Shown piece after piece: positions 1-7,239 of a stretch of DNA of 7,239 nt. Numbering within the stretch: the first letter of the stretch is position 1; every line of letters starts with the position of its first letter. The position numbers and the translations under genes were made by a program. The stretch is from the IMG/VR virus record IMGVR_UViG_2529292835_000020, one strand, 5' to 3'. The notes below the pieces were generated by a model, which saw only the letters and a list, made by a program, of their open reading frames with translations, did not search any database and was not told the origin of the DNA. The DNA is from a virus. Lineage: Duplodnaviria > Heunggongvirae > Uroviricota > Caudoviricetes.

Positions 1-296
1 AACACATCTCGATTTTTTGAAGCAATATGGTGATTTTGAAAATGGTATTCCTGTTCACGATACCATTGCCAGAGTTGTATCCTGTATCAGTCCTGCAAAA
101 TTTCACCAGTGCTTTATTAACTGGATGCGTGACTGCCATTCTTCAGATGATAAAGACGTCATTGCAATTGATGGAAAAACGCTCCAGCACTCTTATGACA
201 AGAGTCGCCGCAGGGGAGCGATTCATGTCATTAGTGCGTTCTCAACAATGCACAGTCTGGTCATCGGACAGATCAAGACGGATGAGAAATCTAATG
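1..296 (+). repeat. Direct repeat, identical to 6944-7239 (internal segment of the transposase gene)
   Basis: Base-by-base comparison by eye of window start and window end shows no mismatch. Confidence 0.9.
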
Positions 297-982
297 AGAT
301 TACAGCTATCCCAAAACTTCTTAACATATTGGATATTAAAGGAAAAATCATCACAACTGATGCGATGGGATGCCAGAAAGATATTGCAGAGAAGATACAA
401 AAACAGGGCGGTGATTATTTATTCGCGGTAAAAGGAAACCAGGGGCGGCTTAATAAAGCCTTTGAGGAAAAATTTCCGCTGAAAGAATTAAATAATCCAG
501 AGCATGACAGTTACGCAATGAGTGAAAAGAGTCACGGCAGAGAAGAAATCCGTCTTCATATTGTTTGCGATGTCCCTGATGAACTTATTGATTTCACGTT
601 TGAATGGAAAGGGCTGAAGAAATTATGCGTGGCAGTCTCCTTTCGGTCAATAATAGCAGAACAAAAGAAAGAGCCCGAAATGACGGTCAGATATTATATC
701 AGTTCTGCTGATTTAACCGCAGAGAAGTTCGCCACAGCAATCCGAAACCACTGGCACGTGGAGAATAAGCTGCACTGGCGTCTGGACGTGGTAATGAATG
801 AAGACGACTGCAGAATAAGAAGAGGAAATGCAGCGGAATTATTTTCAGGGATACGGCACATTGCTATTAATATTTTGACGAATGATAAGGTATTCAAGGC
901 AGGGTTAAGACGTAAGATGCGAAAAGCAGCCATGGACAGGAACTATCTGGCGTCAGTCCTTGCGGGGAGCGGGCTTTCGTAA
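1..982 (+). CDS. ISAs1-family (H-repeat-associated, DDE-type) transposase, 5'-truncated by the window edge; codons start at nt 2, stop TAA 980-982
   Basis: Open frame from the window edge to 982; provided ORF 17..982 translation (…[29 protein letters not shown]…[20 protein letters not shown]…) matches, from memory, the E. coli H-repeat proteins (YhhI/YdcC/YbfD paralogs); I cannot say which paralog. Its first 296 nt are identical to 6944-7239, the continuation of the complete 5' end seen at 6789. Confidence 0.9.
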
Positions 983-1011
983 TCTTGCCCTGGGTAGGAG
1001 GCCCTCCAGGG

Positions 1012-1464
1012 ATGTTAGTCGGTGCGGCAGTTGGAGCGGTGGTTATTGGTGGTGGTATAGTAATATACAACAATCGCGAGGCTGTTGGGGATGCGATTGA
1101 GAAAAGTATGGAGATGCGGGGTGAAGCCGAATTATTAAATGCACAAAGTCAAATGGAATTCTGGCGAGATCCCTATGGTGCTTTTTCCAGCGTGTTTGGA
1201 AATGATGATTCATCAAAAGAGAATCCAAATGTCGGGAAGGATTTGACGGATGAAGAGAAGAACTGTTTGGGCAGTGGCAGTACAGGAGGTTCGGGAGGGT
1301 GGGAGCCAGATGAGGATGGCGAAATAAGAAATACCTACAGGTCTATTAAGGATGCTCCTCAGTATCCCAGAGGGTTTAGGAATGTCCAAAATGGCACTAC
1401 AAGGAATGTTGTAAAGGATCAGCAGTTATTGAAACAATTACGTAAAGTAGATTCAGGAAAATAG
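1012..1464 (+). CDS. Hypothetical protein with N-terminal glycine-zipper-like hydrophobic segment; possible orphan toxin-like remnant; ends at amber TAG 1462-1464 but the frame stays open to TAA 1582-1584
   Basis: ATG 1012 preceded by AGGAGG 995-1000 (the ORF track's 985 start is a TTG). N-terminus MLVGAAVGAVVIGGGIVIY is hydrophobic and Gly-rich, followed by a hydrophilic body. Body is AT-rich unlike the rhs core. Function not recognised. Confidence 0.4.
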   Translation: MLVGAAVGAVVIGGGIVIYNNREAVGDAIEKSMEMRGEAELLNAQSQMEFWRDPYGAFSSVFGNDDSSKENPNVGKDLTDEEKNCLGSGSTGGSGGWEPDEDGEIRNTYRSIKDAPQYPRGFRNVQNGTTRNVVKDQQLLKQLRKVDSGK

Positions 1465-1583
1465 AGTAAAGTTTATAAAGATGGATTTGATGCGTCAGGT
1501 CGAAAAGTGTCCATTCACTATTTTGAAAGTCAGAGTGGTCGAGTATTTAATGTAAAAGTAAAACCTTATTGGAGTAATTTATA

Positions 1584-1924
1584 ATGAGAATTGATTATAG
1601 TATTAGCAATGAACACGCAGAGAAATTTATCAGTCTTTTAGTGTTGGGTGTTTTATATTCTATTGAAAAAAAGCAATATCTATAGATGAGGCAGAAGGTT
1701 TTATATTTAAGCCATCTACGTCAAAAACATTGAATGCTGCATCGCACTCTAAAAACTTAATTGACATTATAGATTCTGGTTGTGAGCTTGAAGATATATC
1801 TAGCATCATTCCTGAAAATTTATCAGGTAATATTGATAAATTAATTAACCAGACGCTGGATTTTATTCGAGGTGCTCCTGATTTTGGCGGTGCAGTCGAT
1901 AAGGAAATTATTTTAGTCAAATAA
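1584..1924 (+). pseudogene. Small gene (candidate immunity-like partner) split by a -1 frame change at an A7 tract: 1584..1685 (33 codons) continues in the -1 frame 1667..1924
   Basis: ATG 1584 overlaps the upstream TAA (TAATG) with GGAG at 1571-1574. The frame stops at TAG 1683-1685, but the -1 frame is open from 1667 to TAA 1922-1924 and has no plausible ATG of its own. One extra A in the 1666-1672 run would fuse both parts into a 113-codon ORF. Confidence 0.35.
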
Positions 1925-1958
1925 AAATATATCGTTAATATATGTTGGTGATGTTTTG

Positions 1959-1990
1959 TTGAGGGCTTTTTTATTGTTAGTGGTATAAAT
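1959..1990 (+). promoter_or_regulatory. Candidate sigma70 promoter for rhs: -35 TTGAGG (1959-1964), extended -10 TGgTATAAA (1981-1989)
   Basis: Hexamer matches in the AT-rich intergenic region upstream of the rhs RBS AGGGAG (1993-1998) and ATG 2005. The 19-nt spacer is longer than optimal. Motif-based only. Confidence 0.3.
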
Positions 1991-2156
1991 ATAAGGGAGT
2001 GAGAATGAGCGGAAAACCGGCGGCGCGGCAGGGCGACATGACCCGCAAGGGACTGGATATTGTGCAGGGTTCAGCAGGGGTGCTGATAGGCGCGCCGACG
2101 GGGGTTGCCTGCTCGGTGTGTCCTAAAAAAAGGACAGTCCAAATTATGGCAACCCG

Positions 2157-3407
2157 GTGAACCCGGTGCTGGGTGCAAAGGTGCTGCCGGGCGAGACGGA
2201 CATTGCGCTGCCCGGCCCGCTGCCGTTCATCCTTTCCCGCGCCTACAGCAGTTACCGGACCAGGACGCCCGCGCCGGTAGGGGTGTTCGGTCCCGGCTGG
2301 AAAGCGCCCTTCGATATCCGCTTACAGATACGCGATGAAGGCCTGATACTCAACGACAGCGGCGGCAGGAGCATTCACTTTGAGCCGCTGTTTCCCGGCG
2401 AGGTAAGCTACAGCCGCAGCGAGTCACTCTGGCTGGCGCGGGGCGGAGTAGCGGCGCAGCACAGTTCGCAGCCGCTAAGCGCGCTCTGGCAGGTGCTGCC
2501 GGAAGATGTTCGCCTGAGTCCGCATGTGTACCTGGCGACAAACAGCCTTCAGGGGCCGTGGTGGATACTCAGCTGGCCGGAGCGGGTGCCGGGGGCGGAC
2601 GAGGTGCTGCCGCCGGAGCCGCCCGCATACCGGGTGCTGACGGGCGTGGTGGACGGCTTCGGGCGGACGCTGACTTTCCACCGGGCGGCGGAGGGTGACG
2701 TGGCGGGCGCGGTGACGGGGGTGACGGACGGCGCGGGCCGCTGTTTTCACCTGGTGCTGACCACACAGGCGCAGCGGGCGGAAGCCTTCCGTAAACAGCG
2801 CGCCACGTCTTTATCTTCCCCTGCCGGTCCCCGTTCTGCTTCCTCTTCTTCTGCTTTCCCCGACACGCTGCCCGCCGGTACAGGATACGGTGCCGATAAC
2901 GGTATCCGGCTGGAGGCGGTGTGGCTGACACACGACCCGGCATACCCGGATGAACAGCCGACTGCGCCGCTGGCGCGCTACACGTACACGGCCAGCGGAG
3001 AACTGCGGGCGGTGTATGACCGCAGCGGGACGCAGGTTCGCGGGTTTACTTATGATGCGGAGCACGCCGGGCGGATGGTGGCGCACCATTATGCGGGGAG
3101 GCCGGAGAGCTGCTACCGGTATGATGATACCGGTCGGGTGACGGAGCAGGTCAACCCGGAGGGGCTGGACTACCGCTTTGAGTACGGAGAGAGCCGGGTA
3201 ATCATCACGGACAGCCTGAACCGGCGGGAGGTGCTGTACACGGAAGGCGAGGGTGGCCTGAAGCGGGTGGTGAAGAAGGAGCATGCCGACGGGAGCATCA
3301 CCCGCAGCGAGTATGATGAGGCGGGGAGGCTGAAGGCGCAGACGGATGCGGCGGGGCGGCGGACGGAGTACCGGCTGCATATGGCGTCGGGTGCGGTGAC
3401 GCGGTGA
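2157..3407 (+). CDS. Rhs N-terminal core fragment (a gene caller would report this segment of the rhs pseudogene as a separate CDS)
   Basis: ORF-track frame; translation aligns with the Rhs N-terminal region as I recall it (NPV-GAKVLPGETD-ALPGPLPFILSR-YSSYRT…). Not an independent gene. Confidence 0.5.
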   Translation: MNPVLGAKVLPGETDIALPGPLPFILSRAYSSYRTRTPAPVGVFGPGWKAPFDIRLQIRDEGLILNDSGGRSIHFEPLFPGEVSYSRSESLWLARGGVAAQHSSQPLSALWQVLPEDVRLSPHVYLATNSLQGPWWILSWPERVPGADEVLPPEPPAYRVLTGVVDGFGRTLTFHRAAEGDVAGAVTGVTDGAGRCFHLVLTTQAQRAEAFRKQRATSLSSPAGPRSASSSSAFPDTLPAGTGYGADNGIRLEAVWLTHDPAYPDEQPTAPLARYTYTASGELRAVYDRSGTQVRGFTYDAEHAGRMVAHHYAGRPESCYRYDDTGRVTEQVNPEGLDYRFEYGESRVIITDSLNRREVLYTEGEGGLKRVVKKEHADGSITRSEYDEAGRLKAQTDAAGRRTEYRLHMASGAVTR

Positions 3408-3905
3408 CGGGGCCGGACGGCAGGACGGTACGGTATGGCTATAACAGCCAGCGGCAGGTGACGTCAGTGACGTACCCGGACGGGCTTCGCAGCAGCCGGG
3501 AGTATGATGAGAGGGAAGGCTGACGGCGGAGACCTCGCGCAGCGGTGAGACAACGCGGTACAGCTATGATGACCCGGCGAGTGAGCTGCCGACAGGGATA
3601 CAGGACGCGACGGGCAGTACAAAACAGATGGCATGGAGCCGTTACGGTCAACTGCTGGCCTTCACGGACTGCTCGGGGTACACGACGCGGTATGAGTACG
3701 ACCGGTACGGTCAACAAATCGCCGTTCACCGGGAAGAAGGCATCAGCACTTACAGCAGTTATAACCCGCGTGGCAACTGGTCAGTCAGAGGGATGCGCAG
3801 GGGCGGGAGACCCGTTATGAGTACAGCGCCGCAGGCGACCTGACAGCGACGATATCACCGGACGGTAAACGCAGCACCATCGAATATGATAAACGCGGGC
3901 GTCCG

Positions 3906-4613
3906 GTGAGTGTGACGGAAGGCGGTCTGACGCGCAGCATGGGGTATGACGCTGCCGGGCGCATCACTGTGCTGACCAACGAGAACGGCAGCCAGTCCAC
4001 GTTCCGGTATGACCCGGTCGACAGGCTGACGGAGCAGCGTGGCTTTGATGGCAGGACGCAACGTTACCAGTATGACCTGACCGGAAAACTCACGCAGAGT
4101 GAAGATGAGGGGCTTATCACCCTCTGGCACTACGATGCGTCGGACCGCATCACCCGGCGCACGGTGAACGGCGACCCGGCGGAGCAGTGGCAGTATGATG
4201 AACACGGGTGGCTAACCACCATCAGCCATACCAGTGACGGCCACCGAGTGTCGGTCCACTACGGCTATGACGATAAAGGCCGCCTGACGGGCGAACGGCA
4301 GACGGTGGAGAACCCGGAGACGGGGGAGATGCTGTGGGAGCATGAGACGGGGCATGCGTACAGCGAACAGGGGCTGGCGACCCGTCAGGAGCCGGACGGC
4401 CTGCCGCCGGTGGAGTGGCTGACGTATGGCAGCGGTTATCTTGCGGGGATGAAGCTGGGCGGAACGCCACTGGTCGAGTACACGCGGGACCGGCTGCACC
4501 GTGAGACGGTGCGCAGCTTCGGCGGTGGCAGGCCTGATGAAGCTTGCCACCGCCTGGACATACACCCTCACAGGGCAGCTACAGAGCAGGCACCTGAACC
4601 TCCCGCAGCTTGA
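3906..4613 (+). CDS. Rhs central core fragment with YD repeats (segment of the rhs pseudogene)
   Basis: ORF-track frame; YD-repeat content ([18 protein letters not shown]); homologous frame actually opens at about 3765. Confidence 0.45.
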
Positions 4614-6240
4614 CCGGGACTACGACTGGAACGACAACGGACAGCTAATCCGCATCAGCGGCCCGCAGGAGAGCCGGGAGTACCGTTACAGTGACACGGG
4701 AAGGCTGACGGGCGTCCACACCACGGCGGCGAACCTGGATATCGATATCCCGTATGCGACGAACCCGGCAGGAAACCGGCTGCCGGACCCGGAACTGCAC
4801 CCGGACAGCACCCTCACGGCGTGGCCGGATAACCGCATCGCGGAAGATGCGCACTATGTCTACCGCTACGATGAATACGGCAGGCTGGCGGAGAAGACGG
4901 ACCGCATCCCGGAAGGGGTGATACGGATGCACGACGAGCGGACCCACCACTACCACTACGACAGCCAGCACCGTCTGGTGTTCTACACGCGGATACAGCA
5001 CGGTGAGCCGCAGGTGGAGAGCCGCTACCTCTATGACCCGCTGGGCCGCCGGACGGGAAAACGGGTGTGGCGGCGGGAGCGTGACCTGACGGGGTGGATG
5101 TCGCTGTCGCGTAAACCGGAGGAGACATGGTACGGGTGGGACGGTGACAGGCTGACGACGATACAGACCGGCACCACGCGTATCCAGACGGTGTACCAGC
5201 CGGGGAGCTTCACGCCGCTCCTGAGAATCGAAACAGAGAATGGCGAACAGGCGAAGGCGCGGCACCGTAGCCTGGCGGAGGTGTTGCAGGAGGACACGGG
5301 TGTGACGCTACCGGCGGAGCTGGCGGTGATGCTGGGGAGGCTGGAGCGGGAACTGCGCGCGGGAGCGGTGAGTGCGGAGAGTGAGGCATGGCTTGCGCAG
5401 TGCGGGCTGACGGCGGAACAGATGGCCGCGCAGATGGAGGCGGAATACATCCCGGAGAGGAAACTTCATCTTTACCACTGTGACCACCGTGGACTGCCGC
5501 AGGCGCTCATCACCCCGGAAGGCGAAACGGCGTGGTGCGGGGAGTATGACGAGTGGGGGAACCAGCTTAATGAGGAGAACCCGCATCACCTGTACCAGCC
5601 GTACCGTTTGCCGGGGCAGCAGTATGATGAGGAGTCGGGACTGTATTACAACCGTCACCGGTACTACGATCCGTTGCAGGGGCGGTATATCACCCAGGAT
5701 CCGATAGGGTTGAAGGGGGGAATAAATCTATACACGTATCCACTGGCACCAATACGTTACACTGATCCACTGGGGTTAGAACGAGTTATAAGTGTATATG
5801 GGCCTCCCGCTCCAGACCGGGCAGGTGCTGAAACTCCTCTTGTTCTTACTGATATGACTGGAGGAGTGACTATTTATTATGATCCTGAAACAGGTGATTC
5901 AATGACTTTTGATAGTAGCAATAGAATTGATCGTCGTTCTCAACGTGGTGCTGGTGATCCATATACAGGTGAAGTCGTTGGTTGTGAGACAAATGAATCA
6001 GGAATATCGGCAGCATATGGCACAACGAAGATCTATACTACAGATACTAGAGCAAGATGGCTACATGGTGGGGGATCATCGTTGCGCGATCCTTATGCTC
6101 CTCGACAAGGCTGGAAACCAACTATGGGATGTACCCGTGCACAGAATGAAGATGTAGATGAGTTGTGTAAGAAAGTGACAAGTTGGATGTATTCGCATCC
6201 TGGAGAGAGAATTAGATATGAACGTTTTAAGACACGTTAA
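4501..6240 (+). CDS. Rhs C-terminal core plus toxin tip (longest intact segment of the rhs pseudogene)
   Basis: 579-codon open frame containing YD repeats, DPLGL (5764-5778) and the 153-codon C-terminal domain; stop TAA 6238-6240. Confidence 0.55.
5779..6237 (+). other. Rhs C-terminal toxin domain, putative L,D-transpeptidase (YkuD) fold
   Basis: Begins immediately after DPLGL. Contains WLHGGG (His codon 6064-6066) and, about 22 residues later, [17 protein letters not shown] (Cys codon 6130-6132), resembling the YkuD His … (S/T)xGC(I/V)Rx-N-D…L active-site signature. Composition switches to AT-rich. Confidence 0.5.
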
Positions 6241-6610
6241 TGCGATTAACATGGGAGTGTGCATTCTAATTTTGGTTATTGGATGTGCAAATGCTAAAGT
6301 TCTTAAACGATGTATATTACCCGCTCCTGATGGTGGCGTAGAAAAACTATCAAAACCCAACTTACATGGAGTAATTAAAAAAGTTGATTTGAACACAAAT
6401 GAAGCGGAAATTAAAATAAAAGAGGGGGGGGCAGTGAGTTTTATTTTTAATGAGGAAACATTGTATTTTACTGTTTTTGGTGGGGATTTTATTATGGATG
6501 ATTTAAAAAAAGTAAAAAATACGGAAGCATGGGTATGGTATAAAAATTGCGATAGTAAAAATAAAAATGTGGCAGTTGAACTTCTTCAAATCTACGAATT
6601 GCATCAATGA
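6218..6610 (+). CDS. Predicted lipoprotein or exported small protein; candidate cognate immunity protein of the Rhs C-terminal toxin
   Basis: ATG 6218 overlaps the last codons of rhs (stop 6238-6240). N-terminus [23 protein letters not shown] has a positive n-region, hydrophobic core and lipobox-like VIGC (AXA-like ANA follows). AT-rich; stop TGA 6608-6610. Position matches Rhs immunity genes. Confidence 0.65.
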
Positions 6611-6650: not shown

Positions 6651-6674
6651 AGCATCACGTGATGCTGATTTTTT
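6651..6674 (+). terminator. Candidate intrinsic terminator: palindrome AGCATCACGTGATGCT followed by T6
   Basis: Perfect 16-nt palindrome at 6651-6666 (about 6-bp stem, 4-nt loop) followed by TTTTTT at 6669-6674, 41 nt after the 6610 stop. Stem is short and only moderately GC-rich. Confidence 0.4.
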
Positions 6675-6788
6675 GCACTAAATAATTCGCATTTTATGTT
6701 TAAAAATTGAGATATTCCTTATTACCTAAAGCTGTTTTTTATTGCTTATACATGATCAAATACTCCTTACATAATTAAGGAGAACAAA

Positions 6789-7239
6789 ATGGAACTTAAA
6801 AAATTGATGGAACATATTTCTATTATCCCCGATTACAGACAAGCCTGGAAAGGGGAGCATAAATTATCGGATATTCTACTGTTAACTATTTGTGCCGTTA
6901 TTTCTGGTGCAGAGGGTTGGGAAGATATAGAGGATTTTGGGGAAACACATCTCGATTTTTTGAAGCAATATGGTGATTTTGAAAATGGTATTCCTGTTCA
7001 CGATACCATTGCCAGAGTTGTATCCTGTATCAGTCCTGCAAAATTTCACCAGTGCTTTATTAACTGGATGCGTGACTGCCATTCTTCAGATGATAAAGAC
7101 GTCATTGCAATTGATGGAAAAACGCTCCAGCACTCTTATGACAAGAGTCGCCGCAGGGGAGCGATTCATGTCATTAGTGCGTTCTCAACAATGCACAGTC
7201 TGGTCATCGGACAGATCAAGACGGATGAGAAATCTAATG
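6789..7239 (+). CDS. ISAs1-family (H-repeat-associated) transposase, complete 5' end, 3'-truncated by window edge
   Basis: ATG 6789 preceded by AAGGAG (6777-6782). Translation [67 protein letters not shown]… runs to the window end with no stop; 6944-7239 is identical to 1-296. Confidence 0.9.
6944..7239 (+). repeat. Direct repeat, identical to 1-296
   Basis: Same comparison as for 1-296. Confidence 0.9.

Follow-up and report, generated by a model that had tools for sequence, protein, structure and literature searches.

The 7,239-nucleotide stretch of viral DNA recorded in IMG/VR as IMGVR_UViG_2529292835_000020 (the window) carries, as judged from gene order and Pfam content, an Rhs element of the Escherichia/Shigella type, and it probably holds the toxin-immunity end of an Rhs polymorphic toxin of E. 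coli/Shigella, in which a periplasmic L,D-peptidase of the YkuD family would be paired with an exported immunity protein. A first-pass annotation of the sequence had described a core-ending DPLGL at 5764-5778, a further 153 codons containing WLHGGG, and an open reading frame (ORF) from 6218 that overlaps the rhs stop and opens with a signal-like segment ending in LVIG-C, all of which proved correct on direct reading. The residues preceding DPLGL read P-IRYT, completing the PxxxxDPxGL motif; WLHGGG occupies residues 94-99 of the tip, and the Cys-containing segment that follows occupies residues 117-133. The proposal that this tip is the C-terminal toxin of an Rhs protein was likewise upheld by the RHS repeats and core, by the PxxxxDPxGL motif, and by a shift in composition, the G+C content falling from 0.60-0.71 in the rhs core to 0.44 in the tip and 0.28-0.36 in and after the 6218 ORF.

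The resemblance of the tip to YkuD/L,D-transpeptidase (Ldt) domains, which had been noticed by eye, was substantiated by a profile hidden Markov model search and by fold comparison. The tip matches Pfam YkuD (PF03734) with E = 3e-5, its 25.1 bits exceeding the gathering score of 23.4; the same match falls just under the threshold (20.7-21.6 bits) when the full-length Rhs protein is used, and 12 of 13 homologues at 45-55% identity match the family independently (best E = 3.2e-6). An AlphaFold2 model built from a 17-sequence alignment reached a predicted local distance difference test score (pLDDT) of 83.5 and a predicted template modelling score of 0.79, and the best 11 matches found for it by Foldseek in the PDB all have the YkuD fold (Csd6, Bd1075, LdtA, a YkuD, Pgp2, YcbB, and DpaA). 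Comparison of the family profile with E. coli LdtB by hhalign gave one 25-residue segment (E = 3.2e-4), in which T115-x-G-C118-x-R...NED is laid onto S-H-G-C-V-R...NED, placing Cys118 on the Cys of the LdtB SHGC. The tip sequence H96-GG-x16-T115-M-G117-C118-T agrees with the His/Cys motif H-x-x(14-17)-[S/T]-H-G-C-h, with a His-Cys spacing of 22 residues as opposed to 16 in LdtB. Conservation of this pair among homologues, on which the assignment had been made to depend, was found to be near complete in up to 155 aligned family sequences: His96 in 153/154, Cys118 and Gly117 each in 154/155, Arg120 in 152/154, Asn123 in 154/154, and Thr115 in 150/155, while Gln110 and Gly98 are also essentially invariant (155 aligned sequences). 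Taken together, the profile matches and the predicted fold identify the tip as a divergent YkuD domain proper, with conserved His and Cys.

The family to which the tip belongs is broad. An exhaustive profile search returned 340 cluster representatives at E <= 0.001, with the domain C-terminal among the matches listed, and RHS-type domains (RHS repeats, teneurin YD-shell, or RHS core) are present in all seven of the long members scanned, the domains in these seven including RHS repeats, DUF6531, a teneurin-type YD shell, PASTA, and VgrG plus RHS. One member, P0129 (672 residues), joins a VgrG (Phage_GPD) N-terminus to an RHS core and the same tip, and probably arose by deletion or mis-assembly between neighbouring vgrG and rhs genes. 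When one genome from each species was scanned with the toxin profile, 22 loci were obtained, among them Variovorax, Acidovorax, Curvibacter, Nitrosomonas, Stenotrophomonas, Desulfovibrionaceae, and several metagenome-assembled genomes. The first-pass annotation had not recognised an Ldt-like tip on an Rhs scaffold as a known combination; the pairing is uncommon but not new, since computational studies of 2012 and 2020 had already described Rhs proteins with L,D-peptidase tips, and many fragments of this Rhs protein are named "L,D-transpeptidase family protein" in RefSeq/NCBI. Nor is it rare in E. coli: of 5426 complete genomes compared with a query composed of the tip and the 6218 ORF, 1039 gave a match, which in 911 extended over >= 80% of the query, almost always with an identity of >= 99%.

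The proposal that the next ORF is the immunity gene was borne out by comparison with the partners of distant toxin homologues. The ORF overlaps the rhs stop by 23 nucleotides, and its product begins with a charged and then hydrophobic segment. Its close database relatives consist only of the same Escherichia/Shigella protein, many with frameshifted tails, and added no diversity. In the species scan and the metagenome loci, the genes directly after the toxin belong mainly to two families. Type B (six loci, about 126-142 residues) is characterised by KCxLPxPDGG...SxPNxxG...YTAFGGD...VWYKxC and contains two conserved Cys, whereas type A (11 loci, about 185-205 residues) has a CxGxxC[LVI] motif and four invariant Cys. 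The E. coli ORF is related to the six other type B proteins (hhalign probability 98.4%, E = 8e-15, 80 columns), which adjoin distant toxin homologues in Acidovorax, Curvibacter, and others. Because this partner family keeps its place directly after the toxin across beta- and gamma-proteobacteria, the 6218-6610 ORF is identified, from comparison of sequences and gene order, as the cognate immunity gene of the tip.

Membership of type A was also considered for the E. coli ORF and rejected, the two being unrelated on comparison. Type A follows the toxin at L003 6597-7190, L006 4635-5243, L009 1299-1904, and L011 2204-2821, and is also found downstream at L014, L019, L022, L023, L025, L029, and L030; without a match in Pfam, it seems to represent an immunity family of exported proteins that had not been described before. 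NCBIfam returned nothing for either the tip or the immunity ORF, and the Pfam scans of the ORF, type A, and type B matched neither Imm16 (DUF2750) nor Imm57, provided that both are represented in the Pfam copy used. A DUF4367 match to the immunity ORF (21.7 bits, below threshold, in one of seven family members) was set aside as noise, and hints of YobA/DUF3221 (E of about 0.02-0.5) were not counted as evidence. AlphaFold2 run without an alignment on the immunity protein gave a pLDDT of 32. In database variants of the protein, the frame is lost exactly at a run of eight G (6424-6431), which could reflect sequencing error or slipped-strand variation.

Lipoprotein signal peptides end in a lipobox of the pattern [LVI][ASTVI][GAS]-C. 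The N-terminus of the immunity protein, with R5, a hydrophobic core, and LVIG|C23 (Cys codon 6284-6286) followed by Ala at +2, fits this pattern, and ANA|K27, which lines up with the AxA|K of four homologues, could alternatively serve as a signal peptidase I site. A lipobox-like Cys is present in just two of the six type B homologues. Thus, of the earlier description of a lipoprotein immunity gene, the export signal stands as a conserved feature, whereas lipidation, although compatible with the E. coli sequence, does not appear to be conserved in the family. Nearly all of 24 downstream partner ORFs have a signal-like hydrophobic N-terminus; a simple signal rule flagged 17 of them, and the other seven lack an early Lys/Arg by that rule but are visibly hydrophobic.

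Some toxin homologues are themselves short proteins of about 190-200 residues that lack the Rhs shell; in these, a Sec signal precedes the final ~35 residues of an Rhs core (RYxxSDPIGL...DPxGL), to which the toxin is joined. Such Sec-signal toxins are seen in P0016, P0022, P0025, P0028, and P0188, at L003 6001-6591, and at L014 about 2800-3420; at L003-L005 the short gene overlaps an upstream gene for a transglutaminase-like protein. Within the family, Cys69 and Cys130 are both present in 31 sequences, both absent from 101, and found singly in only 1, which suggests a Cys69-Cys130 disulfide. The signals of the partners, the Sec-borne toxin homologues, and the paired cysteines were regarded as three independent lines, to which the conserved Cys of type B proteins may be added, and because of them action of the toxin in the envelope or periplasm, as envisaged in the first-pass annotation, is the best reading of the sequences.

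Several points weigh against the assignment and the compartment proposed. The sequence link between the tip and YkuD is remote and weak, since PDB sequence searches, made with the tip alone and with the family profile, reached no Ldt (nor Tlde1a); the link is carried by the Pfam match, the one hhalign segment, and the predicted fold, and in the PDB by fold comparison alone. His96 lies outside that hhalign segment, its equivalence to the catalytic His being drawn from conservation, an IHG/LHG match by eye, and spacing. The second His of (S/T)HGC is not conserved, position 116 being L in 33 sequences, Y in 23, M in 22, H in 18, E in 11, and K in 9, and position 119, directly after the Cys, is Thr in 135/154 rather than hydrophobic; because of these two departures, the substrate or the chemistry may differ from that of classical Ldts. 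The Cys69/Cys130 pair largely follows one subclade, and so reflects few independent events. A survey found Rhs proteins to be usually fused to toxins acting in the cytoplasm (PMC12994826), and in the literature searched there is no enzymology, toxicity assay, or other experiment on the tip family or the immunity protein.

The following scheme is proposed. In intact copies, a 1410-residue Rhs protein bearing the 153-residue tip, and encoded directly after the Hcp-VgrG genes of a type VI secretion system (T6SS) cluster, would carry the tip inside its shell and, by analogy with other Rhs proteins, free it at the PxxxxDPxGL site. The tip would then act as a Cys/His L,D-peptidase, most likely attacking the stem peptides of the target's peptidoglycan in the periplasm, with Cys118 forming the acyl-enzyme and His96 serving as general base; the likely chemistry would be cleavage or exchange at the bond between meso-diaminopimelate at position 3 and D-Ala at position 4, or cleavage of 3-3 cross-links. 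The exported 130-residue protein, possibly lipid-anchored in E. coli, would shield the producing cell and its kin, presumably through binding to the toxin in the periplasm. The intact immunity gene in the window could still protect against the approximately one-fifth of E. coli strains in which the tip occurs, in some cases as part of an intact rhs.

A more far-reaching reading, entertained tentatively and somewhat doubtful, is that the family forms a separate YkuD-derived toxin clade distinct from Tlde1, which has lost the second His, has invariant residues of its own (R91, R93, Q110, N123), is served by two unrelated exported immunity families, and is delivered by an Rhs shell or by Sec; such a clade could catalyse a peptidoglycan or envelope reaction new to interbacterial toxins. 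It is unlikely that the tip instead cuts another periplasmic bond, be it the Lpp-peptidoglycan link, in the manner of the amidase DpaA/LdtF, or a bond in a periplasmic protein, so that the envelope would be loosened and not blocked in its cross-linking: the hhalign comparison with E. coli DpaA was not significant (E = 0.54, against 3.2e-4 for LdtB), and the top fold neighbours are Ldts and L,D-carboxypeptidases, which act on stem peptides.

The first-pass annotation had pointed to effectors of the Tlde1 type, and the tip could be thought a Tlde1 (DUF2778) member akin to the Rhs-Tlde1c of Shigella/Escherichia, with dual L,D-carboxypeptidase and D-amino-acid exchange activity. Tlde1 has been established as a YkuD-related T6SS effector with periplasmic toxicity, L,D-carboxypeptidase/exchange activity, and Rhs-fused members in Shigella and Escherichia. 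The Tlde1/DUF2778 effectors (Tlde1a of Salmonella Typhimurium and the Rhs-fused Tlde1c) are, like the proposed toxin, Ldt-related T6SS antibacterial proteins with a His and a Cys as catalytic residues; their toxicity is exerted in the periplasm and is countered by a periplasmic immunity protein, and some members are fused to Rhs. Their His-Cys spacing is nevertheless short, being 10 residues in Tlde1a (H121-C131) (PMC9638812) as compared with 22 in the tip, neither the tip nor any of the 13 family members matched DUF2778 (PF10908) up to E = 1, and Tlde1a was not the closest structural neighbour. On account of the spacing and the family matches, the tip is placed in YkuD proper, and membership of Tlde1 is held to be improbable. 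The cluster members listed do not include the Shigella sonnei protein WP_052983304.1 from the Tlde1 preprint.

That the tip is a cytoplasm-acting thiol peptidase or transferase, and the downstream ORF not its immunity protein, is scarcely credible: the usual cytoplasmic cargo of Rhs/PAAR effectors (PMC12994826) and the fact that export of the immunity protein is read from its sequence only speak for it, whereas the tie between the downstream ORF family and the toxin family across distant taxa, the signal-like N-termini of nearly all members of both partner families, the Sec signals of some toxin homologues, and the paired Cys patterns in toxin and partner speak against it.

The warning that the upstream rhs frame is broken proved justified. 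When the window is compared with the intact 1410-residue homologue WP_126123763.1 (strain 120899), the frames run 1>3>2>1>3>1, and the window rhs, with at least five frame changes, has no intact frame; relative to this homologue there are 1-nucleotide deletions at about 3400, 3512, 3773, and 4303, and a gain of 10 nucleotides across 4528-4568. Positions 312-4312 of the window are 98.6% identical to a downstream orphan rhs of strain 120899, which is itself frameshifted and has a ydcD tip. Against the VgrG-linked rhs of the same strain, identity is 87-99% over about 4300-5100, reaches at least 99.5% from 5101 onward, and is complete (100%) between about 5300 and the end of the immunity gene, tip included, while for 3900-5000 the best identity among complete E. 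coli genomes (97.8%) is to yet another rhs locus. The rhs body is a mosaic pseudogene, its 5' 2.3 kb resembling the orphan rhs with the ydcD tip and its 3' 1.5 kb the VgrG-linked one; the tip and immunity gene themselves are intact in the window. Recombination among rhs copies could have produced this mosaic, as could an assembly path running through the repeated core or collapsed repeats, and the pattern is in keeping with the name "rearrangement hot spot" as well as with such collapse. The toxin is unlikely to be produced or delivered from the window copy, whose mosaic body lies between copies of ISAs1 and changes frame at least five times.

The same module is also found in other genomes. 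In strain 120899, tssB, tssC, hcp, and vgrG are followed by an intact rhs with the same tip, the main effector there, and the tip and immunity gene lie directly after VgrG in some E. coli genomes. No VgrG/PAAR linkage is found within the window itself, where the rhs sits between ISAs1 copies. In E. coli NCTC8623, the same tip and immunity gene form an N-terminally truncated orphan behind a main rhs with a different tip; positions 5502-21878 of that locus comprise a T6SS locus with the main rhs and two further rhs tip/immunity modules split by ISAs1, an evident array of orphan modules beside yafV-ivy-fadE. The features of the window are collected in Table 1.

Table 1. Positions and basis of the features assigned in the window (L002 is the E. 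coli NCTC8623 locus; L001 is a second comparison locus).
Feature	Position	Strand	Basis
ISAs1-family (H-repeat) transposase gene, 3' part, cut by the window start	17..982	+	Pfam DDE_Tnp_1, E = 1.5e-30
159-codon ORF, conserved between ISAs1 and rhs in E. coli	985..1464	+	WP_000960005.1 at the equivalent position in L001 and L002
Short DUF3969 ORF just upstream of rhs	1730..1924	+	Pfam DUF3969, E = 1.1e-7, profile positions 50-98 of 106
rhs body: PAAR-like N-terminus, DUF6531, RHS repeats, RHS core; mosaic, frame-broken pseudogene	1999..5778	+	Pfam
PxxxxDPxGL core-end motif, marking the core/tip boundary	5749..5778	+	Read from the sequence; the G+C drop starts here
Putative Rhs C-terminal toxin tip, 153 residues, predicted YkuD (L,D-peptidase) fold; His96 6064-6066, Cys118 6130-6132	5779..6240	+	Pfam, model, conservation
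Predicted cognate immunity gene, 130 residues, exported, type B family; signal region codons 1-26	6218..6610	+	hhalign, co-occurrence with the tip
G8 homopolymer within the immunity gene	6424..6431	+	Sequence
Terminator-like hairpin and T-run, about 40 nucleotides past the immunity stop	6651..6676	+	Consensus scan only
Second ISAs1 transposase gene, 5' part, cut by the window end	6789..7239	+	Sequence; ISAs1 annotated at the same position in L001 and L002

Among the flanking genes, the 159-codon ORF has a Gly-rich hydrophobic N-terminus and neither a Pfam nor an NCBIfam match, and the short ORF before rhs matches the C-terminal half of the DUF3969 profile only, its counterpart in L001 and L002 (WP_000990552.1) being annotated as DUF3969 family; the two ORFs may be the remnant of another toxin/immunity pair. 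Window positions 1-296 and 6944-7239 are a 100% identical direct repeat, spaced 6943 nucleotides apart and lying in both cases inside an ISAs1 transposase gene, so that the window forms a single unit between direct ISAs1 copies, which could be either a true tandem arrangement or a repeat-induced cycle in the assembly graph. A promoter scan around the tip and immunity gene gave nothing above the expectation from shuffled sequence.

As a rule, T6SS effectors directed at the cell wall are small cargo proteins, and Rhs tips are toxins that act in the cytoplasm. A periplasmic L,D-peptidase borne by an Rhs protein, and carried in about one-fifth of complete E. coli genomes, would therefore be a convenient model of how Rhs cargo finds its compartment, and also of what L,D-peptidase chemistry does to a competitor's wall. 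If the family should prove to be a separate clade, E. coli would offer a tractable Rhs-encapsulated toxin that must stop in the periplasm and not cross the inner membrane. The value of the present analysis is incremental, because prediction of the class dates from 2012 and RefSeq already has a name for the domain; what is added is the placement in YkuD proper and not Tlde1, the recognition of its immunity family, and consistent evidence that the toxin acts in the periplasm.

In relation to known systems, the classical YkuD enzymes (E. coli LdtB, E. faecium Ldtfm, and the L,D-carboxypeptidases Csd6, Pgp2, and Bd1075) have the fold predicted for the tip and share with it G-C-x-R...N-E-D...L around the catalytic Cys, with the His 16-22 residues upstream. 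The tip differs from them in being a bare 153-residue domain without a LysM, peptidoglycan-binding, or NTF2 partner domain, in having the motif SxGC instead of SHGC, in its toxin scaffold, and in its accompanying immunity gene; relative to LdtB, it has six extra residues between His and Cys. With the orphan rhs-CT/immunity modules that H-repeat (ISAs1) elements separate in E. coli Rhs loci, the window shares the order ISAs1, small ORFs, rhs remnant, tip, immunity gene, and ISAs1, although its rhs body, instead of being cleanly truncated, is of nearly full length, mosaic, and frameshifted. The kind to which the tip is assigned is the Tox-LD-peptidase of Zhang et al. (2012), a purely computational description of a domain with the fold of PDB 1ZAT and conserved H, S, and C on RHS-repeat proteins, for which delivery by the type II secretion system (Sec) or the T6SS and immunity by Imm16/Imm57 were listed, and hydrolysis of peptidoglycan cross-links was proposed (PMC3482391). 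The partner families described here match neither of the listed immunity families (Imm16, i.e. DUF2750, and Imm57) in Pfam, whereas the remaining features coincide, namely a C-terminal YkuD domain on RHS proteins, delivery by the T6SS or Sec, a linked immunity gene, and beta- and gamma-proteobacterial hosts.

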